Of a stretch of DNA of 64,000 nucleotides, positions 3 to 63,857 are shown one piece after another. Below the pieces are notes generated by a model that worked only from the letters and a program-made list of their open reading frames with translations, searched no databases and was not told the DNA's origin. This DNA comes from Patescibacteria group bacterium (GTDB taxonomy: Bacteria; Patescibacteriota; Minisyncoccia; UBA9983): assembly GCA_040752125.1 (NCBI GenBank), contig JBFMFK010000003.1, positions 19,034-83,033 of the forward strand, given 5' to 3'. The translations under genes and the position numbers were made by a program. The stretch's first letter is position 1. Each line of letters starts with the position of its first letter.

Positions 3-1016
3 TTGAAAAATAGGGGGTATGAAACATCCGGCATATTTTTAAATTTAGGGCAGATCAACTATAAAAATGCCCTTAATGCTGCAAAAAAAGTGGCAAAAAA
101 AATCGGCATACCTCAAAAAACTATTGATTTAAGAAAGAAATTTAAAAAAGAAGTCATTGATTATTTTTTAAAAGGATATAGTTGCGGCATTACACCGAAT
201 CCCTGCATCATTTGCAATAAAAAAATCAAATTTAGAGTGGTTTTTGATTTAATGAAAAAATGGAAATATGATTATTTATCTACCGGGCATTATGTAAAAA
301 AAATAAAAGGTATTTCAGGTTTCGAGCTTCGAGTTGCGCGCGACAAAAATAAAGACCAGTCTTATTTTTTGTATAATTTAACCCAAAAACAATTGGCTAA
401 ATTATTATTTCCGCTGGGGAATTACACAAAAGATGAAGTAAAAAAAATGGCGAAAAAATGGAGGCTGAAAACTTTAAAGAGAGAAAGCCACGACATTTGT
501 TTTTTGGCAGGTGAGCATGGAAAATTTTTGCGCCGGCATTTAAAAAAAATAAAAAGAGGTGAAGTTATGGATATAAACGGAAATCTGATAGGGTTTCATG
601 ATGGTTTGCCATTTTATACAATCGGCCAGAGAATCGGCTTGGGCGGAGGGAAGATAGTGCCTTATTATGTTGTAGAAAAAGACGCAAAAAGGAATATTTT
701 AATCATTGCAAGCAAGGCAGAGGAAAAAAAGTTTTATAAAAAAGAAGTAGTTATTAAAAATATTAATTGGATAAGCGGTAAATCTCCGGATTTGAAAAAA
801 GTTTATAAAGCACGAATAAGATATAGGCAGCCGTTGCAAACTTGCAGAATTATATTGCTAAAAACCAAAAACAAAAAAGTTGCCACTTGGAAGCGATCGC
901 ATTTATCTGGTAACATTTTAGCGAAATTTGCAAAACCTCAAAGAGCAGTGACTCCCGGCCAATCCTTGGTTTTATATGATGGACAGAAACTTCTTGGGGG
1001 TGGTATCATAAAATAA
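3..1016 (+). CDS. mnmA: tRNA-specific 2-thiouridylase MnmA, C-terminal part (5' end lies outside the window)
   Basis: The ORF runs from the window edge and the PP-loop N-terminus is missing. The conserved MnmA motifs GITPNPCIICNKKIKF and DQSYFL are present, and it lies next to alaS. Confidence 0.8.
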   Translation: MKNRGYETSGIFLNLGQINYKNALNAAKKVAKKIGIPQKTIDLRKKFKKEVIDYFLKGYSCGITPNPCIICNKKIKFRVVFDLMKKWKYDYLSTGHYVKKIKGISGFELRVARDKNKDQSYFLYNLTQKQLAKLLFPLGNYTKDEVKKMAKKWRLKTLKRESHDICFLAGEHGKFLRRHLKKIKRGEVMDINGNLIGFHDGLPFYTIGQRIGLGGGKIVPYYVVEKDAKRNILIIASKAEEKKFYKKEVVIKNINWISGKSPDLKKVYKARIRYRQPLQTCRIILLKTKNKKVATWKRSHLSGNILAKFAKPQRAVTPGQSLVLYDGQKLLGGGIIK

Positions 1017-1018
1017 TA

Positions 1019-2719
1019 ATGACATCCAGAGAAATCAGAAAAAAATTTTTGGAATTTTTTAAAGAGAAAGGACATACGATTATTCCATCAGCTTCATTGA
1101 TTCCGAATGAAACAGATCCTACTGTTCTTTTTACTACTGCTGGCATGCATCCTTTAGTGCCTTATCTTTTAGGAGCAGACCATCCCGGTGGAAAGCGAGT
1201 GGCAAATATCCAGAAATGCATCCGGACTGTTGATATAGATAAAGTGGGAGACAACAGTCATTTGACTTTTTTTGAAATGCTGGGCAACTGGTCTTTTGGT
1301 GATTATTTTAAGCGCGAGGCGATTGAATGGAGTTTGGAATTTTTAACTGATAAAAAATGGCTAGGAATTAATAAAAATAGAATTAGTGTGACAGTTTTTG
1401 CCGGTGATAAAGATGCGCCGCGAGACGAGGAATCAGCCAAAATCTGGCAATCACTCGGTATTCCTCAAAAAAGAATTTTTTACAAAGGCAAAGAGGATAA
1501 TTGGTGGGAACCAGCAGGAGCTACTGGGCCGTGTGGGCCAGATACAGAAATGTTTATTAACCTGCCTGACGGCAAGGCGGGTGGCACGGAAATCTGGAAT
1601 GATGTTTTTATGGAATACAACAAGAGAGCGGACGGGAAATATGAGATATTAAAACAAAAAAATGTTGATACTGGAATGGGATTGGAAAGAATTGCCATGA
1701 TAATGCAAGGGAAAGATAATGTTTATGAAACAGATTTGTTTGCGCCCGTAATAGAAAAAATTAAAGCAATATCTCTTACAAGTTACAAGTTACAAGTTAC
1801 AAGTTACAGAATTATCGCTGACCATATCAAGGCCGCCACTTTTATTATTGCTGATGGAGTGGAGCCATCAAATTTAGGCAGAGGATATGTGTTAAGAAGA
1901 TTGATTCGCAGAGCAATAAGGCATGGCCGGTTGTTAGGTATAGAAAAAAATTTTACAAAAGAAATTGCAGAAGTTGTCATGGATATTTATAAAGAACAAT
2001 ATCCAGAATTATTAAACAATAAATTAAAAATTATGAATGAACTAAAAAATGAAGAACAAAGATTTAAAAAAACACTAGAAAAAGGATTGAAAGAGTTTGA
2101 AAAAGGAACTGAGCCATTTATTCTTTTTACTACTTACGGTTTCCCTATAGAGTTAACGCAGGAATTAGCAAAAGAAAAAGGAATTGAAATAGATATAAAA
2201 AAATTTAATGAGCAATTAAAAGCACATCAGGAACTTTCGCGGACTGCTTCTGCAGGAATGTTTAAGGGCGGATTAGCAGATGACAGCGAACAAACAACAA
2301 AATATCATACTGCCACACATTTACTTTTGGCCGCATTGAGAAAAATATTGGGTGAGCATGTGATACAAAAAGGAAGCAATATTACAGAAAAAAGACTTAG
2401 GTTTGATTTTAATCATCCTCAAAAACTTACACACGAGCAGATTCAGACAATAGAAGATTTAGTGAATAAGAAAATTGAAGAAAAAATTCCTGTGCAAATG
2501 ACTGAAATGCATAAAGACGAAGCTTTAAAAACAACAAAGATTTCTTTTGATCCGTCAAAATATGGCGAAATAGTGAAAGTTTATCAAATAGGAGATTTTA
2601 GTATTGAACTTTGCGGCGGTCCTCATGTAAAATCAACCAGCGAATTAGGCCATTTTAAAATCATTAAAGAAGATGCCAGTTCAGCTGGTGTCCGCCGGAT
2701 AAGGGCGGTTTTGGAATAA
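1019..2719 (+). CDS. alaS: alanyl-tRNA synthetase, compact form (catalytic + tRNA-recognition + editing HxxxH/CxxxH, no C-Ala domain)
   Basis: It carries the class II AlaRS signature FTTAGMHPLVPYLLG plus RIIADHIKA and GRGYVLRRLIRRA. The editing-site motifs HTATHLLLAAL and CGGPHV are present. Length is 566 aa. Confidence 0.85.
   Translation: MTSREIRKKFLEFFKEKGHTIIPSASLIPNETDPTVLFTTAGMHPLVPYLLGADHPGGKRVANIQKCIRTVDIDKVGDNSHLTFFEMLGNWSFGDYFKREAIEWSLEFLTDKKWLGINKNRISVTVFAGDKDAPRDEESAKIWQSLGIPQKRIFYKGKEDNWWEPAGATGPCGPDTEMFINLPDGKAGGTEIWNDVFMEYNKRADGKYEILKQKNVDTGMGLERIAMIMQGKDNVYETDLFAPVIEKIKAISLTSYKLQVTSYRIIADHIKAATFIIADGVEPSNLGRGYVLRRLIRRAIRHGRLLGIEKNFTKEIAEVVMDIYKEQYPELLNNKLKIMNELKNEEQRFKKTLEKGLKEFEKGTEPFILFTTYGFPIELTQELAKEKGIEIDIKKFNEQLKAHQELSRTASAGMFKGGLADDSEQTTKYHTATHLLLAALRKILGEHVIQKGSNITEKRLRFDFNHPQKLTHEQIQTIEDLVNKKIEEKIPVQMTEMHKDEALKTTKISFDPSKYGEIVKVYQIGDFSIELCGGPHVKSTSELGHFKIIKEDASSAGVRRIRAVLE
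1777..1809. repeat. heptanucleotide tandem repeat (ACAAGTT)x4 inside the alaS coding sequence
   Basis: Direct read: cttACAAGTTACAAGTTACAAGTTACAAGTTACAGaatt, which encodes TSYKLQVTSYR in frame. Confidence 0.9.
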
Positions 2720-15442: not shown

Positions 15443-18400
15443 ATGAGAAAATTTGAAAAATTTTTAAAGAAAACTTTATCAATAATCCTTTTGGTTATTT
15501 TGGTTAGTAGTGCTCTTTTTGCAAATCCCCAAACTGTTGAGGCGGCGACTTTTAATTGGACGCAGAGTAATTGGTCTGGCGGGGCTTCTGCCAACACTGC
15601 TTCTCATCCTACCAATCAAACCGGCTGGAGTTATTATGCTTCAAAAGATGCTAATTTATCCGCTGGAGCGAGCAGCTTAACTCTCTCCACTATTGCTTCT
15701 TCCACCACCCAAACCACGAATGCTGATTTTAATTCGGGAGCAACTTCAACAACGCAGGTGAGTAATAATAGTGTGGTGTTGGCAGTAGAAACGCCGGGAG
15801 CTTCTTGTGAAAGTAGCATTACTGTTAACCACACTGCCGGCGCAATATCGCCAATTACCACAAGTATTACTTATGGAACGGTAATTACTAATCTTACAGG
15901 ATCTAATAAATGCTGGATAACCCAAAACCTTGGTGCTTCCCAACAGGCAAGTTCAGCTACTGATAATACCGATGCCTCTGCTGGCTGGTATTGGCAATTT
16001 AACCGCAAGCAGGGGTATGCAGTTGGGCCAACACCTGCCTGGACAATTACATCCATTGATGAATCTAGCGACTGGACTTCAGCTAATGACCCCTGCACCA
16101 TAGAGCTGGGCACCGGTTGGCGCTTGCCTACTTATACTGAATGGGCTAATGCTGATGGAGGATGGGCTAACTATAACGATACATACGCTTCTGTGTTAAA
16201 ACTCCATGCTGCTGGCGGCCTCTTCGCCAGCAGTGGCGGCCTGTACGGCAGAGGCGCGACCGGCCTCTACTGGAGCAGTACTCAGTACATTAGCACCCTC
16301 GGCTACTACCTGATCTTCGACAGCAGCAGCAGCAACATGGGCAGCGACAACAATAAGGCGTCTGGGTTTTCGGTGCGCTGCCTTACAGATAATATTTTAG
16401 GCTACTACTCCTCTGGCACTTTTACTTCTAATGTGATTAATCTTGGAACAAATGTAAATTGGGGCAATCTTTCCTGGACTGAAACAGGAACAGGCACGAT
16501 AACTATGAAAGCTCGGTCTTGTGATGACAGCGCTTGTTCTGGTGAAGCAGCTTTCACAAGTTGTTCTAATATCACTAATGGCGCGGCTTTATCAACTGGT
16601 AATTGTGTAACTAATGGTCATCAATATATTCAATATCAAACTGCGCTCTCAACTTCAGATATCTCATTTACACCTTCTTTAGATGACGTGACTATTGGAT
16701 ATAATTATTATCCTTCTTCTCAAAATCTAACTTCATCTAAATACGATTCCTCATCTGACGGCAATGTTATTGGCGGCCTGGCTTGGGATGAGGATGCGAC
16801 TCTTACTTCTGGAACGAGTGTAACCCTGTCACTTCGCACTGCTTCAAGCACAGTTAATCTTGATTCTGCCTCTTGGAGCGATTTTACCAATGCCACAGCA
16901 AATTGTTCTAAAGCAGGGACAAGAGTAACTTGCACCTCTTCAGCCATTCCTTCTTCTATGAAAGACGGCTCTGGCGACCAGTGGCAGCAATATAAAGTTA
17001 CTCTGACTTCTACTGGTGCTAACAAACCCACTGTAACATCTGTCATTCTCACTTATGTGGTTAATGCTCGGCCGGAGTTTGATGTGCCTAATACCACTGC
17101 TTCCCAAATCTCTGATTCCGGCAGTGCTAACTGGGGCAAGGTGCAGATAACTTATCCTATTAAAGACATTGATACTACTTCTGGTTCTATTACTCCCGGA
17201 TATGTCACTCCTTCTTTTGAATATAATACTGGCTCTGGCTGGACAACCATTACCTCTGGTTATTTGAATTCCGGAGCTTTAGACAATAAAGCGGTGCAGG
17301 AAGGAAGCTATACATCGCACACTGCTTATTGGGACGCCAAAACGCAGATCCCTAGCACTTATACAACGACCGGCCAGATACGTATCACTATAAATGATAA
17401 TGAGGGCGCCAATAATTCCACCAGCACTACCATTTCCAATATTACCATTGACACTACGAATCCAACTTTATCAGCTTTTACCCTTGACTCGTCCGCGGAT
17501 ACTTTAACGATTTCTGCTTCTGATAATTCTAATCTCCAATATCTAATTTCTAATAACCAAGACGGCTCGGCTGATGGCTCTAATGCTATTTCCAGCTCTT
17601 GGCAAACAGTAGGAGGAACTTCTACCAGTACTACCCGCGCCTGGGCATATTCTCCGGACTCCACTGGTTATGAATCAGTTACTATTGCCTACAGAGATAT
17701 TTACGGAAACACTGCCACTACCACAGATATAGCGCCTTATCAGCCCAAGAACTTTTACTATAAAGATATCTGCAATACTGCTATCAATGACTGGAGAGAA
17801 TTTCTTTCTTGGGGAGTGTATACTGCCACCACCACTTCTTCTTGGGCTAATTACAAAGTTTATCGGTCCACAGATGGAACGACTTATTCTTTGCTTGGCA
17901 CTTTAAGCAGTGACGTTAATACCAATTACTATATTGATTCTTCTGTAGCTTCAACTACTACTTATTATTATAAAGTTTTAATCACTGATTCTGACGGAGA
18001 TATTTCATCTTTCACAGACCCGGTGTCCGATCTGCCCAATGGCCAGGGCGGTTCTGACTCTACCGCTCCCTTAATCACTTCCGGCCCTACTGTGACAGAA
18101 ACCAAATCAACCTGGGCAAGCATTGTCTGGACAACAGACGAGATTTCCAATTCAGTGGTGGAATACGGCTTGACAACTAGCTACGGCTTAACCAGCACGG
18201 TAAACACTATGGTTACTTCTCATTCTGTAACTTTAACCGGGCTCACTCCCAACACCACTTATTATTTTCGGGTTAAATCAACAGATATTGCCTCTAACAC
18301 GGTCACATCAAGCGGCTCGTCATTTGTCACCACTCAAGGACCGATTATCTCTTCTGTCACAGCAGAGAGCGTGACTGACAATACCGCTTCTATTGTCTGG

Positions 18401-20335
18401 AACACTACCACTGATTCTTCTTCTTGGGTCTATTATTCCACCAGCGCCTCGTTTACCAGTTCTTCTACAGAAGGCACTAATACTTTGGTTGGCACCTCAA
18501 CTGCCGGCTATTACCAGCACCGCGTAACCCTGACTGGACTGACAAAGAACACAACCTACTATTATTATGTTAAGTCAACTGACGCTAATTCTGACACTGC
18601 CACAGACACCAATGGCGGCAATTATTATACTTTTACCACTACTTATGACAATCAGCCGCCAGTGATTTCAGACATTACAGTTCCGGTCCGGGCATATAAC
18701 GCTTTGGTTGTTACCTGGAACACTGATGAAAACGCCAATACACGGCTGTATTATGATACTGTAAGTCATGTTGATTGTTCTGGATATTCTAATAGTTCAA
18801 CTTTAGACACCAACCTGACTATTTCCCATGCTGCGGCAATAACTTCCCTTATTGGAGAAACCGCTTATTATTACAGGGTTATTTCAGCTGACGCTAATGG
18901 CAACACCACTTGCTCTAGCGAGCAGGAGACCTCCACTGTGGCTGAGAATGAAATTATTACTGTTTATGTCGGCGGTGGAGGGCCTTCTACGCCTGTTGTT
19001 GTTGATACCACAGCCCCGGCTATTTCCAATATTAATGTCAGCGATATCTCGGCTTTTGGAGCAACAGTGAATTTTAGCATCAGCGAGCCAGCAGCAGGAT
19101 TTGTTCATTACGGCAAGGACACTAATTACGGATTTATTGCCGGTTCTGACACCTTGGCCTCCAGCCACAGCGTAAAATTAGCCGGCTTGCGCCTGGGCAC
19201 AGAATATCATTATAAAGTAACGGCTATGGACAAAGCCGGTAATGTGGGCCAGTCTTCAGACCAGACCTTTTCCACTCTTTTTGCTGCAGAGGCTCTGGAA
19301 GAATTAACGACTTTGGAAAATGCAGAGCAGTTCCAGGAGCAACTAGAAGGAATAATTGAGTCAGTTATGCCTTCCTTGGTTCCTCCTTTTGTGAGCAATG
19401 TCATAGTTGACAATATCACAGAAACTTCTGCTACGGTCAAATGGAAAACCAATATTCCTGCTTTCGGTTCTGTTTCCTATGCAAGTGATTCTGAATATAA
19501 TCAAGACAAGGAAAAACCATATGTGGTGGAAATTGTTGAGAGTACAAAAGAAAAAATTAAAGAACATACTCTAGAGCTGCGCGACCTCTCTCCCGCAACC
19601 AAATATCATCTTCAGGCAAAGTCTTATGTTTTTCCGGATGTGATAGGCAAATCCAAAGATTCTGAATTTTATACATTATCATCAAAGATAAAGCCGGAGA
19701 TCACAAGAGTGGGCAATACTGATGCTGAAGTGAGATGGGTGACTGCTAAAGAAACATCTTCTTTTGCCGAATACCGAAATCTTGCGACAAATAAATTAGG
19801 AAGGATGGGAGATGATAGAAGAGTTCAAAGTCACTTCTTAAAGATAGAAAATCTTGCTCCGGGAACAAATTATGAAATCAAGGTCTTTGGCTATGACCAA
19901 GACAATAATATTATTGAAGCTGATTCCATTACCATCAGGACCAAACAAGATATATCTCCGCCTGTTATTTCTTCCATCAGGATTGATAATGCCATGGTTC
20001 CCGGCAAAAGGGATAAACTTCAGACAGTGATCTCCTGGAAAACAGACGAATCATCCAATTCCCGAGTTTATTTTGAAGAAGGAATTGGAATTTCAGATAA
20101 GCTTACCAATAAGACTGGTCAAGAGAATGAATATACCACAGACCACATTGTCATCATTACCTCAATGAAGCCAGCCACAGTTTATAGAATCAAAGTTTCT
20201 TCCAGGGATGAGGCCGGCAATACAGCTGATTCTCCAATGAGGACCTTTTTGACTCCGCGCTCTGCAGAATCTGTTTTAGATGTCATTGTCCGCAATTTTG
20301 AGGAAAGCTTTGGATTCCTCAAGCGCCTGCGCTAA
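15443..20335 (+). CDS. 1630-aa secreted/surface protein: signal peptide, FISUMP/DUF1566-like domain (…CWITQNLGA…GWRLPTYTEW…GFSVRCL), Ser/Thr-rich linker regions and ~7 fibronectin-III/PAP-N-like repeats
   Basis: The N-terminus has a hydrophobic core followed by VEAATF. The FISUMP hallmarks KCW..QNL, GWRLPT..EW and G.SVRC are present. The repeated FN3-type units each end in ...Y.Y.V.S.D..GN. There is no C-terminal anchor. Confidence 0.85.
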   Translation: MRKFEKFLKKTLSIILLVILVSSALFANPQTVEAATFNWTQSNWSGGASANTASHPTNQTGWSYYASKDANLSAGASSLTLSTIASSTTQTTNADFNSGATSTTQVSNNSVVLAVETPGASCESSITVNHTAGAISPITTSITYGTVITNLTGSNKCWITQNLGASQQASSATDNTDASAGWYWQFNRKQGYAVGPTPAWTITSIDESSDWTSANDPCTIELGTGWRLPTYTEWANADGGWANYNDTYASVLKLHAAGGLFASSGGLYGRGATGLYWSSTQYISTLGYYLIFDSSSSNMGSDNNKASGFSVRCLTDNILGYYSSGTFTSNVINLGTNVNWGNLSWTETGTGTITMKARSCDDSACSGEAAFTSCSNITNGAALSTGNCVTNGHQYIQYQTALSTSDISFTPSLDDVTIGYNYYPSSQNLTSSKYDSSSDGNVIGGLAWDEDATLTSGTSVTLSLRTASSTVNLDSASWSDFTNATANCSKAGTRVTCTSSAIPSSMKDGSGDQWQQYKVTLTSTGANKPTVTSVILTYVVNARPEFDVPNTTASQISDSGSANWGKVQITYPIKDIDTTSGSITPGYVTPSFEYNTGSGWTTITSGYLNSGALDNKAVQEGSYTSHTAYWDAKTQIPSTYTTTGQIRITINDNEGANNSTSTTISNITIDTTNPTLSAFTLDSSADTLTISASDNSNLQYLISNNQDGSADGSNAISSSWQTVGGTSTSTTRAWAYSPDSTGYESVTIAYRDIYGNTATTTDIAPYQPKNFYYKDICNTAINDWREFLSWGVYTATTTSSWANYKVYRSTDGTTYSLLGTLSSDVNTNYYIDSSVASTTTYYYKVLITDSDGDISSFTDPVSDLPNGQGGSDSTAPLITSGPTVTETKSTWASIVWTTDEISNSVVEYGLTTSYGLTSTVNTMVTSHSVTLTGLTPNTTYYFRVKSTDIASNTVTSSGSSFVTTQGPIISSVTAESVTDNTASIVWNTTTDSSSWVYYSTSASFTSSSTEGTNTLVGTSTAGYYQHRVTLTGLTKNTTYYYYVKSTDANSDTATDTNGGNYYTFTTTYDNQPPVISDITVPVRAYNALVVTWNTDENANTRLYYDTVSHVDCSGYSNSSTLDTNLTISHAAAITSLIGETAYYYRVISADANGNTTCSSEQETSTVAENEIITVYVGGGGPSTPVVVDTTAPAISNINVSDISAFGATVNFSISEPAAGFVHYGKDTNYGFIAGSDTLASSHSVKLAGLRLGTEYHYKVTAMDKAGNVGQSSDQTFSTLFAAEALEELTTLENAEQFQEQLEGIIESVMPSLVPPFVSNVIVDNITETSATVKWKTNIPAFGSVSYASDSEYNQDKEKPYVVEIVESTKEKIKEHTLELRDLSPATKYHLQAKSYVFPDVIGKSKDSEFYTLSSKIKPEITRVGNTDAEVRWVTAKETSSFAEYRNLATNKLGRMGDDRRVQSHFLKIENLAPGTNYEIKVFGYDQDNNIIEADSITIRTKQDISPPVISSIRIDNAMVPGKRDKLQTVISWKTDESSNSRVYFEEGIGISDKLTNKTGQENEYTTDHIVIITSMKPATVYRIKVSSRDEAGNTADSPMRTFLTPRSAESVLDVIVRNFEESFGFLKRLR

Positions 20336-29465: not shown

Positions 29466-29596
29466 TCTATTTAGCATCCGCATCCGATTTTCGATTTTCG
29501 ATGTTTAATCGAACTTATATTTGCTATAGCAGATATAAGTACATTTAAATATAAATACATTACAAATGTTACCTTTTTTTATTCACTAAATTCCTT

Positions 29597-29699
29597 TGTG
29601 GAAGTTATCCACAATCTTTTATTTGGAAAATAAAGAAAAGTGGAGTATAGTGTTAATAAAGTGGTAGATTGTGGATAATTGTGTGGATAATGTGGATAA
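29597..29699. promoter_or_regulatory. DnaA-box cluster: TTATCCACA (29605..29613) and three TGTGGATAA (29670..29678, 29682..29690, 29691..29699) plus a 2-mismatch box at 29597; adjacent AT-rich tract 29536..29590
   Basis: Four perfect 9-mers matching the E. coli/B. subtilis DnaA-box consensus fall within 95 bp, immediately upstream of mraZ. Confidence 0.6.
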
Positions 29700-29723
29700 C
29701 TCTCATTTATACGGAAAAATATT

Positions 29724-30158
29724 ATGCTTATTGGTGAATACAAACATAGTCTTGACCCTAAGAAAAGGGTAGCCATCCCTGCAAAATTTAGAAAGGAAAT
29801 AGGAAAAAAAGCAGTAATCACTCGAGGATTAGATCAGTGTCTTTTCATATATCCAATGAATGAATGGGGAAAGGTGGCCGAAAAACTTAGCGAGCTACCG
29901 ACCGGCTCATCTGATACAAGAAATTTCGTCCGCCTTTTCCTGTCAGGTGCAAGTGATGTAGAAATTGATGCTTTAGGAAGAGTCTTGATTCCGGATTATC
30001 TTAAAAAATTTGCCGGCCTGAAGGAAAAAGCAGTTATTGTAGGTATGCATAAGCGATTAGAAATATGGAGCGAGGAGAACTGGGAGAATTATAAACAGCG
30101 CATAGAAAAACAGACAGACATTCTGGCAGAAAAATTAGGAGAATTAGGAGTATATTAA
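29724..30158 (+). CDS. mraZ: transcriptional regulator MraZ
   Basis: The N-terminus reads GEYKHSLDPKKRVAIPAKFR and the duplicated MraZ fold is present. It is the first gene of the dcw cluster. Confidence 0.9.
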   Translation: MLIGEYKHSLDPKKRVAIPAKFRKEIGKKAVITRGLDQCLFIYPMNEWGKVAEKLSELPTGSSDTRNFVRLFLSGASDVEIDALGRVLIPDYLKKFAGLKEKAVIVGMHKRLEIWSEENWENYKQRIEKQTDILAEKLGELGVY

Positions 30159-43520: not shown

Positions 43521-43550
43521 GGCTTGCCCTGCGAAGCTTCAGCGAAGTGG

Positions 43551-43622
43551 GACCTCTTCGTCTAGTGGTTAGGACACATGGTTCTCAGCCATGCAACACG
43601 GGTTCGACTCCCGTAGAGGTCA
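43551..43622 (+). tRNA. tRNA-Glu (anticodon CUC)
   Basis: Cloverleaf drawn by hand. The acceptor stem is GACCTCT/AGAGGTC. The anticodon stem is CATGG/CCATG with loop TTCTCAG, and the T-arm is ACGGG-TTCGACT-CCCGT. Confidence 0.85.
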
Positions 43623-43639
43623 ATGCTATAATAAGACCA

Positions 43640-46306
43640 ATGTTAAGACAGGCAATTGCTTGGCATAGTTTGGATTTAAAAGAAATAAAAAAACAATTGG
43701 CGACTGATTTTAGCAATGGTTTAAGTGAAAAAGAAGCGCAAAAGCGGCAGAAACATTACGGCAAAAATCTTTTTGAGAAAAAAAAGAAATTTTATTATCT
43801 TAAACTTTTATGGAAGCAAATAAAAAGCCCCCTTATTTTTATCTTAATCATCGCCGGCCTTATCACTCTCATTTTAAAAGAATATGCTAACACTACTGTT
43901 ATTTTCATCGCTGTTTTTATAAATACTTTAATGGGCATCTTTCAGGAAGGTCGGAGTTCGCGGGCTTTTGAAAAATTGCAAGCATCACAGAAAAAATACG
44001 CCACCCTTGTCAGGGAGGGTAGAAAAAAAATAATAGAATCTTCCGAACTTGTTCCCGGCGATATTATTGAAATCCAAATGGGGAATCAGGTGCCAGCGGA
44101 TGCCCGCATCATAGAATCAAAGAGGTTGGAAGCCAATGAAGCAGTTTTAACAGGGGAATGGCTGCCAGTCAAAAAAGACAATCAAAAATCTCTGCCTGAG
44201 AAAACACATATCACTGACAGGAGCAATATGTTGTGGATGGGGAGTTTGGTGACAGAGGGGTGGGGAAGAGGCGTTGTTGCAGATACGGGTTTCAACAGCC
44301 AAGTCGGCCGCATCGCTGAATTTATAAGCGGAGAAGATACGGTTGTTACGCCGCTTCAAAAAAATACAAAAAAATTGGCTAAGTTTCTGAGTTTTATCGT
44401 TGTTTTGTCGCTGTTGGTTTTGATCATCCTGGGTTTGTGGCGGGGCCAGAACTTTTTTGGCATATTTTTAACTGCTGTAGCTCTGGCAGTGTCAGCTATT
44501 CCCGAGGGCCTGCCAGTGGCAGTGACAGTGGTTTTAGCAATAGGAATGCAGAAAATTTTTTCCAAAAACGGCCTGCTGAAAAATTTAGATTCAGCAGAAA
44601 CCCTTGGTTCCACTTCTCTCATTCTCACTGACAAAACCGGCACCCTTACAAAGGCAGAGATGAATGTGGAAAAAATCATTACTTTGCTTTCCGAAGAAAA
44701 CAAATTAAAGCCAAAAGAACACAAAGACAGATTGGCTGTTTTAGAGATGGCTTTGCTAGCCACTGAAGCATTTATAGAAAATCCTCAAGATAATCTCGGA
44801 GAATGGATTATTAGAGGAAATCCAATGGGGAGGGCAATTTTTCTGGCTTCCTTGGAATCAGATATCCAGCCTTTGGTCTTGCAAAAAGAGCATAAGCGCA
44901 TTGATTTTATACCTTTTGACGCGGGCAGAAGATATGCCGCTTCCTTATATAAAAAAAATAATCAGGAATCTTATATTTTTGTCATTGGCGCGCCAGAAGT
45001 TATTCTTCAGTTTTGCAACAAAATTTACAAAAAAGAAAAGGAAATTGCTCTTAGCGAACCAATACTCAAATTATTAAACAAGGCCTCTTTGGAAGAAACC
45101 TCAAAAGGCGCGAGAATTTTAGCTGTGGCTTACAGAAAGGCAGATTGGGATTCTTTTCCCAGAGAGCAAGAGAAGAAACATAAGGAAATTTTTTCAAAGA
45201 TGACCTTGGGAGGATTTATTGCCTTTCATGACCCCTTAAGAGAGAATGCCAAGCAGTATTTGCAAGAGTCAAAGGAAGCATCTATAAGAACTGTGCTGGT
45301 AACCGGCGACCATGTGGAAACCGCTAAAAAAATCGGAGAGGAAGTCGGAATTTTACGCAAAAACGGACTTGTTTTAACAGGAGATGAGTTAGAAAAAATG
45401 AGCGACAAAGAACTCGAGGAGATAATCGGAAAAGTAGATATTTTTGCTCGAGTCCTGCCCCAGCAAAAAATGAGAATTTCAAATTTCTGGCAGCAAAGAG
45501 GGGAAATAGTGGCTATGACCGGCGACGGAGTTAATGACGCGCCTGCCTTAAAGCACGCTGATATCGGAATTGCTCTTGGTTCAGGCACCGAGGTGGCAAA
45601 AGAAGCGTCAGATTTAATTCTTTTAAATGATAGTTTTAATACTATTGTGGAGGCAGTTAAGGAAGGAAGAAGAATCATGGATAATTTAAGAAAAATTATT
45701 ACCTATCTTTTGTCAACGTCTTTCAGTGAAATCGTCTTAGTGGCGAGCTCCATTCTGGTTGGCGCGCCATTGCCAATTCTGCCTGCGCAAATTCTCTGGG
45801 TCAATATCATAGAGGAAGGTTTTATGAATTTTGCCTTTGCTTTTGAGCAGGCTGAAGAGAATATTTTAAAAAGAGACCCCAAAAAAGAATGCAGCAGGGC
45901 AATTTTGACAACACGAATAAAAAAAATGATTTTGATAATAGTGGCAATAACCAGTCTTTTGCTTATCTCTGTATTTTTTTTCTTAGATTATAAAAATTAT
46001 CCCCTGGAAAAAGTAAGAACGGTTATGTTTGGGGCTATGGCCATAGATGCAATATTTTTCAGTTTTTCCCTCAAGAATCTGCGAAAGCCGGTTTGGAAAA
46101 TCAATATCTTTTCCAACATTTATCTTCTTTTCTCGCTATCAGTCAGTATTTTTCTTTTGCTGAGTGTTTTATTTATTCCTTTTCTGCAAAAATTGCTTTC
46201 TGTTGTTTCGCTTAGTTTTTTAGAATTAATGATTATTTTTATTATCGGCTTTTTGAATCTTTTGACCATAGAAACAGTAAAATATTTCGTCTTTAGAAAA
46301 CAATAA
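43640..46306 (+). CDS. P-type Ca2+-transporting ATPase (P2-type)
   Basis: DKTGTLT, TGDGVNDAPALK and the PEGLP TM4 motif are present. The supplied ORF (from 43547) reads through tRNA-Glu, so the start is taken at ATG 43640 (MLRQAIAWHSLDLKEIKK…). Confidence 0.85.
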   Translation: MLRQAIAWHSLDLKEIKKQLATDFSNGLSEKEAQKRQKHYGKNLFEKKKKFYYLKLLWKQIKSPLIFILIIAGLITLILKEYANTTVIFIAVFINTLMGIFQEGRSSRAFEKLQASQKKYATLVREGRKKIIESSELVPGDIIEIQMGNQVPADARIIESKRLEANEAVLTGEWLPVKKDNQKSLPEKTHITDRSNMLWMGSLVTEGWGRGVVADTGFNSQVGRIAEFISGEDTVVTPLQKNTKKLAKFLSFIVVLSLLVLIILGLWRGQNFFGIFLTAVALAVSAIPEGLPVAVTVVLAIGMQKIFSKNGLLKNLDSAETLGSTSLILTDKTGTLTKAEMNVEKIITLLSEENKLKPKEHKDRLAVLEMALLATEAFIENPQDNLGEWIIRGNPMGRAIFLASLESDIQPLVLQKEHKRIDFIPFDAGRRYAASLYKKNNQESYIFVIGAPEVILQFCNKIYKKEKEIALSEPILKLLNKASLEETSKGARILAVAYRKADWDSFPREQEKKHKEIFSKMTLGGFIAFHDPLRENAKQYLQESKEASIRTVLVTGDHVETAKKIGEEVGILRKNGLVLTGDELEKMSDKELEEIIGKVDIFARVLPQQKMRISNFWQQRGEIVAMTGDGVNDAPALKHADIGIALGSGTEVAKEASDLILLNDSFNTIVEAVKEGRRIMDNLRKIITYLLSTSFSEIVLVASSILVGAPLPILPAQILWVNIIEEGFMNFAFAFEQAEENILKRDPKKECSRAILTTRIKKMILIIVAITSLLLISVFFFLDYKNYPLEKVRTVMFGAMAIDAIFFSFSLKNLRKPVWKINIFSNIYLLFSLSVSIFLLLSVLFIPFLQKLLSVVSLSFLELMIIFIIGFLNLLTIETVKYFVFRKQ

Positions 46307-46318
46307 TTTTGAAGCATT

Positions 46319-47275
46319 ATGTTTTTATACATCCTGATATTTGTCATAAGTTTTATTTTTCTAATAAAGGCCGGTGCCACACTTGTCAGGTCGCTTACCA
46401 AATTAGCCCGATTTTTTCAGGTTTCCGAATATGTTATTGCGTTTTTTTTGATGAGTTTTGCCACGTCCATACCAGAACTTTTTGTCGGCTTGTCCTCGGC
46501 ACTGGAAGACATTCCTCGGCTTTCGTTAGGGAATATTATAGGTGCCAATTTTATCAACGTCACTCTTATTATGGGTGTAATCGTGTTATTAAACAGAGGT
46601 ATAAAAATTGAAAGTAAAATCTCTCAGGAAAATTTTTGGCTGATTTTTTTCTTGGTTCTTTTTCCTATATTTTTGTCATTAGATGGAATGATTTCCCGAA
46701 GCGATGGTGTTATTTTACTTCTAGCTTTTATTCTTTACTTAGCCAGTTTAATCAAAGAGAAGGAATATTTCACTAAAACTATTAAATCGATTGAGTTTAA
46801 TCACGAAATCAGCGTCGGAGTCTTTAAATGGCTAGGAAGATTTTTATTAGGTATTATAATTCTTCTTTTAAGTTCCTTTGCACTTGTTTGGGCCGGCAAA
46901 CAGCTAATATTTGGGTTGGGTATAAGCGCTTTATTTTTTGGAATAATTTTTGTGGCTTTGGCTACCACCGTGCCAGAACTTGTTTTTGGAATCAGGGCAT
47001 CACTGCTTAAACATACGCAAATGAGCATCGGCAATACAATGGGAAGTGTGGCATTTAATTCGGCTTTCATTATTGCCTTGGTAAGCATCGTAAATCCTAT
47101 CCAGATTGATAATAATATAAACTTTTTCTTTGCAATAATTTTCTTGATTGCTGCCATGCTTTTATTAAATATTTTTGTTTACACCCGCTCCAACATTTCC
47201 TCTCGTGAAGGCATAATTTTAATAGGGCTTTATATCTTTTTCCTCGTCATCCAATATCTTTTTTATACAATTTAG
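46319..47275 (+). CDS. Na+/Ca2+ exchanger family (CaCA/YrbG-like) membrane protein
   Basis: Two alpha-repeat motifs are present: GNIIGANFINVTL and GNTMGSVAFNSAFII. Confidence 0.8.
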   Translation: MFLYILIFVISFIFLIKAGATLVRSLTKLARFFQVSEYVIAFFLMSFATSIPELFVGLSSALEDIPRLSLGNIIGANFINVTLIMGVIVLLNRGIKIESKISQENFWLIFFLVLFPIFLSLDGMISRSDGVILLLAFILYLASLIKEKEYFTKTIKSIEFNHEISVGVFKWLGRFLLGIIILLLSSFALVWAGKQLIFGLGISALFFGIIFVALATTVPELVFGIRASLLKHTQMSIGNTMGSVAFNSAFIIALVSIVNPIQIDNNINFFFAIIFLIAAMLLLNIFVYTRSNISSREGIILIGLYIFFLVIQYLFYTI

Positions 47276-47319
47276 AATTTTATAAGATTATTCATTATAT
47301 TTATAAAATTAAGATTATT

Positions 47320-47347
47320 AAGTATTTCTACGATCGTAACTATACTT
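47320..47347. promoter_or_regulatory. 28-bp palindrome AAGTAT-ttc-TACGATCGTA-act-ATACTT overlapping the -35 region of the PaaX-like gene promoter (extended -10 TGTATAAT at 47362..47369, start codon 6 nt later)
   Basis: Direct read. A related copy, AAGTATTCTTACGATCGTAGCGATATTT, lies downstream of the gene at 47955..47982. Confidence 0.5.
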
Positions 47348-47375
47348 AATAGTTGTATTTTTGTATAATTGAGCT

Positions 47376-47927
47376 ATGGCAAGATATAGTCCCTATAGAA
47401 AAAAGATTCTTTTAATGCTTTTGGCTGGTGTGGCTTTAGGATTGACTTATTCTCCGAGAGGTCAAAAAAAGATTCTGAAAGCATTTATAAAAGATTGGAA
47501 AAATATAGAACGCGACAGATTATATTATCTACTGAATGAGTTTAAATATGAACGGCTGATAGATTATCAAGAATCAAGTAATGGAACAATCAAGGTTATA
47601 TTAACTGAAAATGGTAAGAAAAAAGCGCTTCAGTATGACTTTGATGAAATAAAAATTAAAAAACCAAGTCAATGGGATGGTAAATGGAGATTGGTTATAT
47701 TTGACATTCCGGAGCGAATTAGAAAAGGGAGGGATGCTTTAAGAGATAAATTAAAAGACCTTGATTTTTATGAATTGCAAAAAAGTGTCTGGGTTCATCC
47801 GTATCCTTGCGAAGATGAGATTAATTTTATAACCGAAGTTTTTGACTTAAGATCTTATATTAGATTTGCTGAAATAATAAAAATTACAAATGAAGCAAAA
47901 TTAAAATTGCATTTTAAATTATATTAA
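47376..47927 (+). CDS. PaaX-like small transcriptional regulator (N-terminal winged helix + WDGKW…VIFDIPE C-terminal domain), paralog 1
   Basis: WDGKWRLVIFDIPE matches the PaaX middle-domain hallmark WDGKW. It is 45% identical to the minus-strand paralog at 63205..63759. Confidence 0.6.
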   Translation: MARYSPYRKKILLMLLAGVALGLTYSPRGQKKILKAFIKDWKNIERDRLYYLLNEFKYERLIDYQESSNGTIKVILTENGKKKALQYDFDEIKIKKPSQWDGKWRLVIFDIPERIRKGRDALRDKLKDLDFYELQKSVWVHPYPCEDEINFITEVFDLRSYIRFAEIIKITNEAKLKLHFKLY

Positions 47928-48042
47928 ATTGTGCATCGCGCATAAGTATTAAGTATTCTTACGATCGTAGCGATATTTCATAGTTTAGCTGGCTAGCTGG
48001 TTAGTTGATTAAATTAGATTTAAATGGAAAATGGAAAACAAA

Positions 48043-48075
48043 AAAGCCGAAAAGGATTAAATCCCGATCGGCTTT
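48043..48075. terminator. bidirectional hairpin (AAAGCCGAAAAGGATT-a-AATCCCGATCGGCTTT) between convergent genes
   Basis: Direct read. There is an A-run on the left and a T-containing flank on the right. Confidence 0.6.
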
Positions 48076-48094
48076 AAAGATTTAAGAGCAAGAT

Positions 48095-48394
48095 TTAATG
48101 AAACTGAAGAATCAATGATTCGTTATCTTGACATATAACTTCAATACGTAAGCCAAAAATGTCACTAATCATAAGAGCAATACTACGTGCAGTATGTGGA
48201 TCTCCATAGAAAAACCACTTATCATCTCCATCGTCACAGATTAAAGGTGTATAATCTCTTTTGAAACCTATTGTCATACATCTTTTTGTTAAAAAAGAAC
48301 ATACCATTATATCACCAGATTGAATTGTAGTTTCTGGACCTTGAGATCCTATTCTTAGTTTTCTTATTTTTTTAGAAACAATCCTTTCTTCCAT
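48095..48394 (-). CDS. hypothetical protein (99 aa)
   Basis: A strong RBS lies on the minus strand (AAGGAGGattggCATG). No recognisable motif. Confidence 0.4.
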   Translation of the reverse strand: MEERIVSKKIRKLRIGSQGPETTIQSGDIMVCSFLTKRCMTIGFKRDYTPLICDDGDDKWFFYGDPHTARSIALMISDIFGLRIEVICQDNESLILQFH

Positions 48395-48439
48395 GCCAAT
48401 CCTCCTTCTTATTCAAAAAATATGCTAAAATAATACTTA

Positions 48440-49801
48440 ATGAGCAAGGCTCAATCTGAAAAGAAGAATAGCATAGATAAAGATATAAGTCAAGATGTGG
48501 TGACGAGGTTTGCGCCGAGTCCAACAGGAGTTTTGCATATAGGCGGTGCGAGAACTGCGCTTTTTAATTATTTATTTGCCAGACAAAATAATGGCAGGTT
48601 TATCTTGCGCCTTGAAGATACTGATAAAGAGCGATCTAAAAAAGAATGTGAAGAAGATATTATTCGTAGTTTAAAATGGCTGGGTTTAGATTGGGATAAA
48701 TCTTACAAGCAAAGTGAACGCAAGGAAATCTATAAAAAATATATTAATCATCTGATAAAAAAAAGGAGGGCTTATATTTCAAAAGAAGTGACGGGCAACA
48801 GGGCAACAGTGATAAGATTTAAAAATCCCTGCACAAAAATCAGCTTTCAGGATTTAATTAGAGGTCAAATAGAATTTGATACCACAGAATTGGGTGATTT
48901 TGTAATTGCCAAAGATGAAAATACGCCCCTTTTCCATCTAACCGGCGCCATAGATGATTACGAAATGAAAATTTCTCATATTATACGCGGAGAAGATCAT
49001 ATTTCCAACACTCCTCGGCAAATTCTTATTCAGCAGGCTCTTGATTTCTCTAGCCCAATTTATTCCCATATTCCATTAATCTTGGGTCCTGACCGTTCAA
49101 AACTTTCCAAGCGCCACGGTGCTGTTTCTTTAAAAGAATACAAAGATATCGGTTATTTGTCAGAAGCACTGATAAATTTTTTGGCTTTTTTGGGATGGAA
49201 TCCTGGGACGGAAAAAGAAATTTTCAGTTTGGAAGAATTGATAAAAGAATTTTCTTTAAAGCAAGTCCAGAAAAGCGGAGCAATTTTTAATATTGAAAAA
49301 TTAAACTGGATAAATAAGCAATATATTATGAAAAAGAATTTAGAAGAATTGGCCGTTGAATTGATATATTTTCTTCCAGAAAAATGGCGAGAAAAAGCAG
49401 AAAATGAAAAAAAATTCTGGAGAAAAATAGCGGGACTAGAAAGAGAAAGAATCAGTACCTTGTCAGAAATAGGGGAGAGTATAAATTATTTTTTTGAAGA
49501 GCCTAATTATGAAAAAGAAAAATTATTATGGAAAAATGAAAAAAGTTTAAATAATGTGGAGGTTTACCTTAAAAAAATTATAGAGATGCTAAGCAAATTA
49601 AGTGAAAAAGAATTTACGTCGCACAATATCAAAGAGTTGATTTGGGATTATGCTGAAAAACAAGGAAGAGGCAATGTTTTATGGCCTCTTAGGGTGTCCT
49701 TAACAGGCTTGGAAAAATCTCCGGAACCTTTTATAATTTCAGAAATACTAGGCCAAACAGAGACAATAAGAAGAATTCAAAATGCAATCAATAAATTATA
49801 A
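48440..49801 (+). CDS. gltX: glutamyl-tRNA synthetase
   Basis: The HIGH motif reads PSPTGVLHIGGART, and the KMSKS-type motif is KLSKR. Confidence 0.9.
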   Translation: MSKAQSEKKNSIDKDISQDVVTRFAPSPTGVLHIGGARTALFNYLFARQNNGRFILRLEDTDKERSKKECEEDIIRSLKWLGLDWDKSYKQSERKEIYKKYINHLIKKRRAYISKEVTGNRATVIRFKNPCTKISFQDLIRGQIEFDTTELGDFVIAKDENTPLFHLTGAIDDYEMKISHIIRGEDHISNTPRQILIQQALDFSSPIYSHIPLILGPDRSKLSKRHGAVSLKEYKDIGYLSEALINFLAFLGWNPGTEKEIFSLEELIKEFSLKQVQKSGAIFNIEKLNWINKQYIMKKNLEELAVELIYFLPEKWREKAENEKKFWRKIAGLERERISTLSEIGESINYFFEEPNYEKEKLLWKNEKSLNNVEVYLKKIIEMLSKLSEKEFTSHNIKELIWDYAEKQGRGNVLWPLRVSLTGLEKSPEPFIISEILGQTETIRRIQNAINKL

Positions 49802-53184: not shown

Positions 53185-53350
53185 CTGGTCTGCTAGGATA
53201 TCAGAAAGATTAATATATTTGAGAACTCGTAAGCAATCGAAGAACCCAATAATATTCCTAACATTTTGAAGTAAATTTTGTCAACTATCCCCTATTCCAT
53301 GCCATAGTAATGAATAGATGACAATATGTCGCAAAATAAAGTGAACATTT

Positions 53351-53371
53351 ATCTGCGATAGCAAGTATATG
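53351..53371. promoter_or_regulatory. 21-nt core ATCTGCGATAGCAAGTATATG (copy a), identical to 63154..63174 and related to 63809..63829
   Basis: Exact 21/21 match with the copy upstream of rplU. It lies about 170 nt upstream of the minus-strand PRTase gene. Confidence 0.6.
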
Positions 53372-53437
53372 TACATTATCTCAAAAAATCTCAAAAGAAA
53401 AATTAAAAATAAAAAAGCAGCATCTTTCAACCACCTT

Positions 53438-56202: not shown

Positions 56203-56598
56203 ATGAACGAAAATAAGCTGAGCAATCTTAAGAAGATTTTTAAATTTTATCCACAGATAAAACTTGTTTATCTTTTTGGTTCAAGGGCAAAAGGTAAAAC
56301 AGGTCCTCTCAGTGATTATGACTTCGCTTTTTATATAGATGAAAAAGACAAGAAAAAAGTTTTTGAACTGAAATTTAAATTAATGGATGAAATAACCAAT
56401 GAATTAAAAACAGACAAGGTTGACATAATAATGTTAGACACAACAGAAGGACCTGAAATAAAATATAATATCATTAAGGAAGGTAAATTAATCTATGGAA
56501 AAGAGCCATATAAGATTTTAATTGAACCAAAAATTTTCAATGAATATTTTGATTTTATTTCTATTCTTAAAAGACATAATCTTACAAAAGTATCATGA
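56203..56598 (+). CDS. minimal nucleotidyltransferase (MntA-like antitoxin)
   Basis: LFGSRAKGKTGPLSDYDFAF (GSx9-11SDxD NTase motif) is present. Confidence 0.75.
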   Translation: MNENKLSNLKKIFKFYPQIKLVYLFGSRAKGKTGPLSDYDFAFYIDEKDKKKVFELKFKLMDEITNELKTDKVDIIMLDTTEGPEIKYNIIKEGKLIYGKEPYKILIEPKIFNEYFDFISILKRHNLTKVS

Positions 56599-57011
56599 CT
56601 AATTTAAGTATAATTGAAAATAAAATAAGTGCCATCCAAAAGTATTTAAAGATTCTTGAAGGATACCAAAAATATTCCAGGAAAGAAATAGAAGAAAATA
56701 TTGACATCAGAGGAGCTGTAGAAAGATATCTCTATCTTGTTAGTCAAGCAGCCATTGATTTAGCAGGGGCGGTTATTTCTTTTAAAAACTTGCGCAAACC
56801 CAGCACTCTTAGTGAAAGCTTCCATATTCTTAATGAAGAAAATATTATCCCGAAGGAATTAGTTGAAAAAATGACAAGAATGACTGGGTTTAGAAATATC
56901 ATCGCTCATGATTATGAAAAAGTAAATTATGATATTGTCTATGACATTTTGCACAATAAGCTTAAAGATATTGAAGAGTTTACAAAGATTATCAAAATGC
57001 TAAAATCTTAA
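56595..57011 (+). CDS. HepT-like HEPN toxin (DUF86)
   Basis: GFRNIIAHDY (R-x4-HxY) is present. It overlaps the MNT by 4 nt. Confidence 0.75.
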   Translation: MTNLSIIENKISAIQKYLKILEGYQKYSRKEIEENIDIRGAVERYLYLVSQAAIDLAGAVISFKNLRKPSTLSESFHILNEENIIPKELVEKMTRMTGFRNIIAHDYEKVNYDIVYDILHNKLKDIEEFTKIIKMLKS

Positions 57012-63147: not shown

Positions 63148-63181
63148 TTACCATATATCTGCGATAGCAAGTATATGGTAA
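63148..63181. promoter_or_regulatory. TTACCATATA-TCTGCGATAGCAAG-TATATGGTAA: perfect 10-bp inverted arms around the 14-nt core; copy b, upstream of rplU and downstream of PaaX-like paralog 2
   Basis: Direct read. Confidence 0.6.
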
Positions 63182-63204: not shown

Positions 63205-63759
63205 TTATAATAAATCAAAATGTTTTTTTAAATGCAATTCATTATCTATTGAATCAGCAATAATGAATCTTACAAATTTTCTTATATCATAAAATTCTAT
63301 AAGGTAATCTATTTCATTTTTACAATCGTAGGGGTGAACAAAAACACTCTTTTGAAATTCATAAAATGCCAATTGTTTCAAATAAAATCGTAAAGCTTCT
63401 CTTATCTTTTTTCTCTTTTCAGGAATATCAAAAAGCACTACTCGCCATTTTTTATCCCATTTTTGTGGCTTTTTAATTTTCATTTTATCCAGATCATAAG
63501 TGAGAGCTTTTTGTTTTCCTTTATCAGTGAGAATTATTGTTAAAGTCCCATCTAGATTTTGTCTTTCCGCAACCAGTTTTGATTCATATAAACTTTTTAT
63601 TGCTCTTCTAAGTGCCCGCACTTCAATCTCTTTCCATTCTTTACTCATGCCCTTAAGAATCTGAAAATATCTTTTTGGCGAGCCAGAAAGTCCTAAAGCT
63701 AAACCACCTAAAAGCAAAAGCAATATTTTTTGTTGTATTTCTCCCGGTCCTCTTGGCAT
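63205..63759 (-). CDS. PaaX-like small transcriptional regulator, paralog 2
   Basis: WDKKWRVVLFDIPE is present. The architecture matches the 47376 gene. Confidence 0.6.
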   Translation of the reverse strand: MPRGPGEIQQKILLLLLGGLALGLSGSPKRYFQILKGMSKEWKEIEVRALRRAIKSLYESKLVAERQNLDGTLTIILTDKGKQKALTYDLDKMKIKKPQKWDKKWRVVLFDIPEKRKKIREALRFYLKQLAFYEFQKSVFVHPYDCKNEIDYLIEFYDIRKFVRFIIADSIDNELHLKKHFDLL

Positions 63760-63799: not shown

Positions 63800-63832
63800 T
63801 TACCATATACCAGCGATAGCAAATATATGGCA
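63800..63832. promoter_or_regulatory. TTACCATATA-CCAGCGATAGCAAA-TATATGGCA: copy c of the palindrome, immediately upstream of PaaX-like paralog 2 (overlapping its probable -35/-10 region)
   Basis: Direct read. 28 of 33 nt are identical to copy b. Confidence 0.6.
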
Positions 63833-63857
63833 GATTGGATAATAAATTGATTCTTTA

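Follow-up and report, generated by a model that had tools for sequence, protein, structure and literature searches.

A PaaX-like gene between two copies of one palindrome

What is a gene doing between two copies of its own palindrome? We asked this of a 64,000-nucleotide (nt) stretch of a Patescibacteria group bacterium genome (contig JBFMFK010000003.1 of assembly GCA_040752125.1, positions 19,034 to 83,033; hereafter the window), in which a forward-strand gene for a PaaX-like protein of 183 amino acids (aa) (paralog 1; 47376..47927, +; the product contains WDGKWRLVIFDIPE) has a long palindrome in front of it and a near-copy of that palindrome behind it. Our answer, which we hold to be probable though by no means assured, is that the two palindromes are the cognate operators of a truncated PaaX-type dimeric DNA-binding protein that would control its own gene. 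Bracketing by own palindromes is a rule of the protein family and not a peculiarity of paralog 1.

The upstream palindrome of paralog 1, TATTAAGTAT-ttc-TACGATCGTA-act-ATACTTAATA, spans 36 nt at 47316..47351. Its 28-nt core, AAGTATttcTACGATCGTAactATACTT at 47320..47347, had been placed correctly in a preliminary description of this locus; 11 of the 14 pairs of the core are symmetric, and the symmetry extends outwards to the full 36 nt. The centre of the palindrome lies 42.5 nt 5′ of the ATG, with the right arm over the −35 position of a promoter whose extended −10 element, TGTATAAT (47362..47369, +), ends 6 nt before the ATG at 47376, as the same description had it. The position of the −10 element implies a leaderless or near-leaderless mRNA, to judge from the promoter sequence.

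The downstream copy, TATTAAGTATTCTTACGATCGTAGCGATATTTCATAGTT, occupies 47947..47985 and has its centre 37 nt past the stop codon. Its existence had been reported rightly, but its core lies at 47951..47978, 4 nt away from the 47955..47982 first given for it, and the agreement with the upstream 28-mer is 23 of 28 positions in the correct register, not 19 of 28; at 47955..47982 only 8 of 28 positions agree. With a repeat finder, the match between 47316-47354 and 47947-47985 covers 39 nt at 85% identity. Direct and inverted identity of the two copies are the same, 35/48, and because the element is a palindrome their relative orientation is undecidable.

Exact matches to TACGATCGTA are confined to these two sites in the 64-kilobase (kb) window, where about 0.63 matches would be expected by chance even with one mismatch allowed. 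The ungapped match between the two flanks scores 21, compared with a mean of 9, a 99th percentile of 13 and a maximum of 22 in 400 trials of a cross-locus null. A chance repeat was rejected on both of these grounds and on the counts of adjacent and other intergenic regions given below. The window holds no further paralog 1 site beyond the gene's own two, and a metagenome scan with TAAGTATNNNTACGATCGTA for extra or empty sites of this type returned 28 matches, all attributable to chance, none with the full palindrome or a nearby gene. A search of 47100..48500 for a GC-rich hairpin followed by a T-run yielded no terminator-like site.

Both copies are kept in orthologs and inherited separately

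We compared paralog 1 with four orthologs (loci L081-L084, 82-85% identity). Both palindromes are kept in four of four, with the consensus AACTATTAAGTAT-n3-TACGATCGTA-n3-ATACTTAATAGTT, in which centre and arms are conserved and the linkers vary; the lack of a conserved downstream copy and of an upstream palindrome in orthologous promoters, which the preliminary description had named as the outcome that would count against it, was thus not what L081-L084 displayed. The linkers themselves are informative: an upstream-type linker (left TTC) is common to paralog 1 of the window, L081 and L082, and so are downstream-type linkers (TCT..GCG). Since upstream and downstream linkers are inherited separately, the two copies descend separately, selection holds each of them, and gene conversion is not the cause of their match.

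In the four orthologs, 6-8 nt separate the end of the −10 element from the ATG, and no Shine–Dalgarno motif lies in front of the gene. This geometry agrees with the leaderless promoter proposed at the outset, but such starts are the norm in this genome: Shine–Dalgarno-like motifs precede 5 of 60 window genes, and a −10 hexamer ends 5-9 nt before the start in 17 of 60, gltX, a P-type ATPase gene, a class II tRNA synthetase gene and rplU among them. By this count of start regions, leaderless transcripts look like the default in the organism.

One ortholog locus, L081 (gene 1867..2418, 85% identity), compared with 46319..47375 of the window, has a divergent dnaB upstream in place of the Na+/Ca2+ exchanger gene. 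Synteny breaks at the left edge of the upstream palindrome, and the small downstream open reading frame (ORF) is conserved. In public records the gene start of this ortholog is placed 13 codons too far in, giving 170 aa.

Palindromes bracket the gene across the family

We assembled a comparison set of 80 loci from Patescibacteria genomes, of which 77 were usable for matching upstream against downstream flanks, and computed palindrome positions, conservation, anatomy and locus specificity across it. The best direct match of the 250 nt upstream to the 250 nt downstream exceeded the 99th percentile of the cross-locus null in 57 of the 77. Of the 146 intergenic regions beside the gene, 120 (82%) carry a palindrome of the CGATCG type, versus 4 of 131 others (3%; Fisher p 2e-46), and across all 80 loci, 471 kb in total, only six such palindromes lie more than 250 nt from the gene. 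A generic, genome-wide palindrome resembling repetitive extragenic palindromic (REP) elements was rejected on the counts in other intergenic regions and at a distance. The element that had been called operator-like thus appears as a locus-specific palindrome tied to its gene across the family.

The median position of the palindrome centres is −47.5 relative to the start and +38 relative to the stop, and the centre-to-centre distance has a median of 645 base pairs (bp; interquartile range 631-662). The palindromes are present irrespective of how the neighbours are oriented, upstream in 18 of 24 loci with a divergent neighbour and downstream in 26 of 32 with a convergent and 38 of 46 with a co-directional one, and a median of 38 nt separates the downstream copy from the gene's own stop, compared with about 100 nt to the next gene. 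Because they are independent of orientation and closer to their own stop, the sites belong to the regulator gene and not to its neighbours.

No neighbour is conserved family-wide in the 80 loci, although subfamilies retain a downstream gene: rplU in the group of paralog 2, a second family member in the window described below, and alaS in a group marked by RLGPNQQK. The neighbours are housekeeping genes, and no paa genes were found among them. GATC, examined as a hint of methylation control, had an observed-to-expected ratio of 0.65, similar to that of other 4-bp palindromes. The literature searched held nothing on this bracketed architecture and no paper joining PaaX with Patescibacteria or the candidate phyla radiation.

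A universal centre and private arms

The palindromes follow a common plan: an 8-bp family-wide centre, nCGA|TCGn, a loose 3-bp linker, and arms of 10-13 bp that are private to a protein lineage. Counted outwards from the centre, positions 1-3 (TCG) are universal across the family, position 4 is locus-specific (C or T), positions 5-7 are loosely conserved and often asymmetric, and positions 8-17 agree at about 0.8 among the half-sites of one locus and at about 0.37 between loci; beyond about position 20 the symmetry fades. Overall half-site agreement is 0.82 within a locus versus 0.34 between loci, and between-locus similarity stays at background until the N-terminal domains of the encoded proteins are more than 55% identical. 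Arms are unrelated even among paralogs of one genome. Such locus-private arms call for a sequence-specific reader whose gene lies beside them.

Co-variation with the arms is strongest for protein columns of the N-terminal domain, predicted helix 3 at the top (0.21 versus 0.11 for the Cas2-like domain). This co-variation points to the winged helix as the part that may read the arms; it is not corrected for phylogeny and is suggestive only. The layout of a conserved centre, loose positions 5-7 and specific positions 8-17 would fit reading by a protein better than a simple hairpin.

One alaS-linked locus, L043, mixes two types of palindrome: the copy in front of its gene is of the L051 type and the one behind it of the L044 type. 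L051 and L044 are a pair of paralogs in one other genome. Such a mixture could reflect cross-regulation between paralogs.

A winged helix joined to a Cas2-like domain

The 183-aa product had been described as a PaaX-like winged helix with a C-terminal half resembling Cas2 and VapD, and profile and structure comparisons bear this out. Paralog 1 consists of a winged helix (residues about 6-77), a linker helix (78-90) and a Cas2-like, ferredoxin-fold PaaX_M domain (98-183). PaaX_M (PF20803, 'PaaX central Cas2-like domain') matches residues 98-166 with E 6.9e-24 and 84 bits against a cut-off of 24, and is the sole Pfam match at E ≤ 1; PaaX_C was not found, and the protein stops at residue 183, right behind the Cas2-like domain. 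The score for full-length PaaX (TIGR02277) is not reached by either paralog of the window (29.2 and 29.6 bits against a cut-off of 264.55), the alignment being limited to profile positions of about 62-155 of 279, and the Cas2 profile TIGR01573 likewise falls below its cut-off (18.4 and 23.9 bits against 24.5). On its domain content the product is a two-domain 'mini-PaaX', a predicted winged helix plus Cas2-like PaaX_M without PaaX_C. The resemblance of PaaX to Cas2 is already recorded in Pfam, so the assignment at domain level was already known.

In the fold computed with AlphaFold2, the N-terminal domain comprises three helices and a beta hairpin (mean predicted local distance difference test score 78, lower in the N-terminal domain). 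Foldseek placed E. coli PaaX (8a39) first (E 3.5e-4, 173 columns) and Rv0674 (3kfw) second, followed by many Cas2 structures, and the C-terminal half has weak sequence matches to Cas2 3exc and VapD 3ui3. The Cas2-like half is better conserved than the N-terminal half. Its invariant D110, the Asp of FDIP, follows the strand at residues 104-109 and aligns to Cas2 3exc; R119 and the QKSV motif are also retained, and FDIP and QKSV align with Cas2 and are absent from Rv0674.

The family is sizeable, with 613 clusters at 50% identity (E ≤ 1e-30), and every match with a named organism is from Patescibacteria. Its public annotation varies between 'Cas2', 'PaaX family' and hypothetical, many members being called 'Cas2'; the paralog 1 protein is identical to an NCBI protein from a Patescibacteria metagenome-assembled genome. 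Searches for defence-system and phage protein families gave only weak Cas2 matches in PADLOC and no match in PHROGs, and no family relatives were found in IMG/VR or in phage or plasmid collections.

How the two sites might work

PaaX represses its own promoter and binds widely spaced inverted half-sites, TGATTC(N27)GAATCA (PMC9493321). We infer that the Cas2-like domain of the family protein most likely forms a dimer and that, by analogy with E. coli PaaX on TGATTC-N27-GAATCA, one dimer would span the whole 36-44 bp, the variable winged helices reading the private arms and a conserved part of the protein reading the universal centre. For paralog 1 and its group, the upstream site (centre at −42.5) overlies the promoter of the putative leaderless transcript, where its occupancy would control the protein's own synthesis; repression is the most likely outcome, and activation from that position would also be possible. 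The downstream site, about 38 nt past the stop, would be a second operator, which might either cooperate with the upstream one by looping some 645 bp or, when occupied, act as a roadblock that shields the gene from transcription next to it.

A second bracketed paralog and solitary sites

The window encodes a second member of the family. Paralog 2 (63205..63759, minus strand; 184 aa) is 48% identical to paralog 1 and has the same two domains. Its upstream palindrome lies at 63800..63833 (minus-strand reading ctgCCATATAtttGCTATCGCtggTATATGGtaa) and its downstream palindrome at 63148..63181 (minus-strand reading TTACCATATActtGCTATCGCagaTATATGGTAA), about 120 nt upstream of rplU. This bracket differs from that of paralog 1, following CCATATA-N14-TATATGG, with 90% identity between the copies across 31 nt.

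Elsewhere in the window, two palindromes of the paralog 2 type stand alone: ACTTATATTTGCTATAGCAGATATAAGT at 29513..29540, between a class II aminoacyl-tRNA synthetase gene and mraZ, and a less perfect one at 53342..53375 (minus-strand reading TGTACATATACTTGCTATCGCAGATAAATGTTCA), which is intergenic and about 160 nt upstream of a phosphoribosyltransferase gene. Both carry the inner ATAyTTGCTATmGCwGrTAT of the paralog 2 sites with slightly different outer arms, and the palindrome at 53342..53375 is closely similar to the flanking palindromes of the paralog 2 ortholog L031 of another genome. Their sequences suggest that paralog 2 may have further targets, 29513..29540 being a possible extra binding site. 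We also compared the neighbours of the solitary sites with those of the 80 loci, asking whether such sites mark lost paralogs, and found none in common.

A further CGATCG-centred near-palindrome, GTTGCCActtggaaGCGATCGCatttatcTGGTAAC at 876..913, has 15 of 22 symmetric pairs and falls within coding region 3..1016, in its 3′ part; the arms are similar to a weak family-wide consensus, TTACCA...TGGTAA. A paralog whose gene lies beyond the window could bind here, or the element could be a product of chance.

Weighing the proposed operators against other explanations

Several observations count against operators bound by a self-regulating dimer. Many palindromes are perfect over 40-48 nt, which a homodimer alone does not demand. 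Upstream and downstream copies differ by symmetric double changes in 69 cases (for example at L050 and L069). G.T mismatches exceed A.C mismatches in the sense-strand arms, 94:54, where about 52% would be expected, and asymmetric centres mostly read CTATCG on the sense strand (14:2, the loci being phylogenetically non-independent). Together, the perfect symmetry, the double changes, the G.T excess and the CTATCG bias hint at a strand-specific role, in RNA or single-stranded DNA, or at a hairpin. The spacing between the two sites is without helical phasing and so lends no positive support to looping; a regulator acting on itself alone, as paralog 1 would, needs additional explanation; and the retained Cas2 motifs (the FDIP Asp and QKSV), lost in the PaaX-like Rv0674, may leave room for catalysis, as far as motif retention goes.

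The symmetric double changes could themselves have arisen by template-switch 'correction' of quasi-palindromes, or could tune two operators to different affinities. The alaS-linked loci L050, L051 and L056 (72-74% identical) exemplify them, with CGAGC in the upstream copy and TGAGC in the downstream one, each symmetric.

The explanation that draws most on these points is that the palindromes act mainly as hairpins of RNA or single-stranded DNA, similar to terminators, insulators or stabilisers, at both ends of the transcription unit, and that the Cas2-like fold, as an RNA-binding or nuclease module, recognises the stem-loop and not the duplex. The long perfect symmetry with its copy-specific symmetric extensions, the G.T excess, and the sense-strand bias of the asymmetric centres, CGGTCG as well as CTATCG, all speak for it. 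The predicted RNA hairpins are moreover stable (−7 to −16 kcal/mol), the 'asymmetric' linker of paralog 2 pairs through G.U, about a quarter of the palindromes have flanking A4/T4 runs like bidirectional terminators, and parts of the literature describe Cas2 and VapD relatives as ribonucleases. We nevertheless consider this explanation unlikely. The universal part of the element would be the loop and its closing pairs, while positions 5-7 pair poorly, the reverse of what a plain stem-loop needs; a T-run is present in only 25-30%, and paralog 1 has no canonical terminator. The upstream copy is kept beside divergent neighbours (18/24), where termination is not needed, and in the paralog 1 group it sits 5′ of the −10 element, hence outside the gene's own transcript. 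A pure hairpin role does not explain the sequence common to both copies, and the G.T excess is modest among loci that are phylogenetically related. Plain intrinsic terminators as the main role were rejected separately: T4 stands at the 3′ edge of only 16 of 66 downstream and 20 of 64 upstream palindromes.

It is about equally unlikely, in our estimate, that the downstream copy is instead the operator of the next gene, the protein regulating a neighbouring housekeeping gene (rplU, alaS or other aminoacyl-tRNA synthetase genes) in addition to itself and the bracket being a by-product of gene order. The co-directional rplU and alaS kept downstream in two subfamilies favour such an arrangement, as do the solitary paralog 2-type sites in two other intergenic regions, which suggest a small regulon. 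Yet the downstream copy is equally frequent with a convergent and a co-directional next gene (26/32 and 38/46), its median distance of about 100 nt from the next start, as against 38 nt from the stop, is too far for promoter occlusion given leaderless transcripts, and the next gene of paralog 1 is a convergent small ORF.

Operators of a resident regulator also have to be set against mobility, the preliminary description having likened the gene to a repeat-flanked cassette. In its fullest form this is the proposal that the gene with its two repeats constitutes, or evolved from, a minimal cassette that is mobile or self-excising, with the palindromes as lox-like recombination or cleavage sites (a CGATCG crossover core between protein-binding arms), the winged helix-turn-helix (wHTH)-Cas2-like protein as a site-specific nuclease or recombinase, and the solitary palindromes as empty sites or scars. 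A gene between two arm-core-arm sites, the retention of residues like those of the Cas2 active site (invariant D110 after strand 1, R119, QKSV), the solitary copies and the different upstream neighbour at L081 (dnaB) are compatible with it, but it is very improbable: there are no near-identical multi-copy elements, the paralogs sharing about 48% identity and having different sites; subfamilies show stable synteny; upstream- and downstream-specific linkers are inherited separately; symmetry within a copy exceeds symmetry across copies in 27 loci versus 13 with the reverse (Wilcoxon p 0.007), contrary to what a cassette inserted at the middle of a host palindrome should show; relatives are lacking in IMG/VR and in phage and plasmid collections; no recombinase, Cas1 or CRISPR array lies nearby; and we know of no Cas2-fold recombinase. 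We give as little credence to the related idea that wHTH-Cas2-like proteins are sequence-programmed nucleases or recombinases acting at the CGATCG core, the gene being a 'floxed', self-bracketed unit and a domesticated relic of a minimal mobile element; the retained Cas2-like residues, the arm-core-arm layout and the solitary palindromes speak for it, the stable synteny, the within-copy symmetry and the absence from mobile replicons against it. Were it true, a Cas2-fold protein with flanking palindromic repeats could shed light on the origin of the association between Cas2 and repeat arrays. A CRISPR-like array was rejected outright, there being none in the window, whose genes are housekeeping genes without a cas gene.

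Other features of the window

Convergent on paralog 1 lies an ORF of 99 aa (48095..48394, minus strand) that is probably a real small gene of unknown function. It has a strong Shine–Dalgarno motif (aaggagg), one of only five such genes in the window, and no Pfam, PADLOC or PHROG match; an 85-aa gene occupies the equivalent position at L081, and a hairpin with a T-run (48043..48075) lies 3′ of the ORF on its own strand. Further upstream, the listed 919-aa ORF at 43547..46306 begins with a GTG inside tRNA-Glu (43551..43622). The P-type ATPase gene most likely truly starts at 43640, with a −10-like TATAAT ending a few nucleotides before that ATG.

Just upstream of mraZ (29724..30158), four close-set GTGGATAA-like repeats at 29640..29700 form what we take to be an MraZ-box array like those of other bacteria. 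Adjacent genes for a nucleotidyltransferase (Polbeta/NTP_transf_2) and a HepT-like ribonuclease, with overlapping ends, have an MNT-HEPN (MntA-HepT) toxin-antitoxin layout (56203..57011). A probable large surface protein of 1630 aa, encoded at 15443..20335, contains fibronectin type III and purple-acid-phosphatase N-terminal-like repeats.

Implications of self-bracketing

Recognisable regulators are few in the tiny genomes of Patescibacteria, and hardly any experimental genetics exists for these bacteria. If each family gene does carry its own site twice beside it, hundreds of natural protein-operator pairs would be readable directly from genomes, providing a data set from which to work out a winged-helix recognition code, along with a supply of orthogonal repressor/operator pairs. 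Self-bracketing across the family would also be a way of isolating or looping a gene that is undescribed for a whole family. Furthermore, many 'Cas2' annotations in Patescibacteria genomes would be wrong and would inflate their apparent CRISPR content.

Comparison with known systems

Cas2 and VapD have in common with the family protein a ferredoxin-like fold, an Asp after strand 1 and a Q-x-S-V-F-like motif. In contrast to them, the protein described here has an N-terminal DNA-binding domain and stays below the TIGR01573 cut-off, and its loci have no cas1, CRISPR array or conserved neighbour. Unlike in CRISPR, the repeat-gene-repeat arrangement consists of two copies only, with the gene itself between them.

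Lrp/AsnC regulators combine a helix-turn-helix with a small ferredoxin-like domain for oligomerisation and ligand binding. They gave a weak fold match (2ia0) with no sequence relationship detected, and their operators are of a different kind. RAYTs, tyrosine transposases of the HUH type, are encoded by single-copy, vertically inherited genes flanked by lineage-specific cognate REP palindromes, and REPs number tens to hundreds of copies. The flanking gene-specific palindromes are alike in the two systems, but the protein here is a different one and the palindromes reach only 4/131 other intergenic regions.

Looping repressors, such as lambda CI (whose OL and OR flank cI), LacI, GalR and DeoR, act from sites hundreds of bp apart. 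Their folds are unrelated to that of the mini-PaaX proteins, a chromosomal family in which flanking sites are the rule throughout and their spacing is set by gene length (median 645 bp).

The nearest counterpart is PaaX itself, a repressor of phenylacetate catabolism (E. coli W, 8a39; Rv0674, 3kfw), which likewise has a winged helix followed by a Cas2-like middle domain and provides the best structural matches. PaaX likewise has a long palindromic operator with spaced half-sites at its own promoter (PMC9493321), whereas binding is predicted here. It is about 300 aa long with a ligand-binding PaaX_C, compared with 183 aa without PaaX_C in the family protein. In contrast to PaaX, the family described here has no paa genes nearby and keeps FDIP and QKSV (absent in Rv0674), and it combines a universal CGATCG operator centre with sites on both sides of the gene and several paralogs per Patescibacteria genome.

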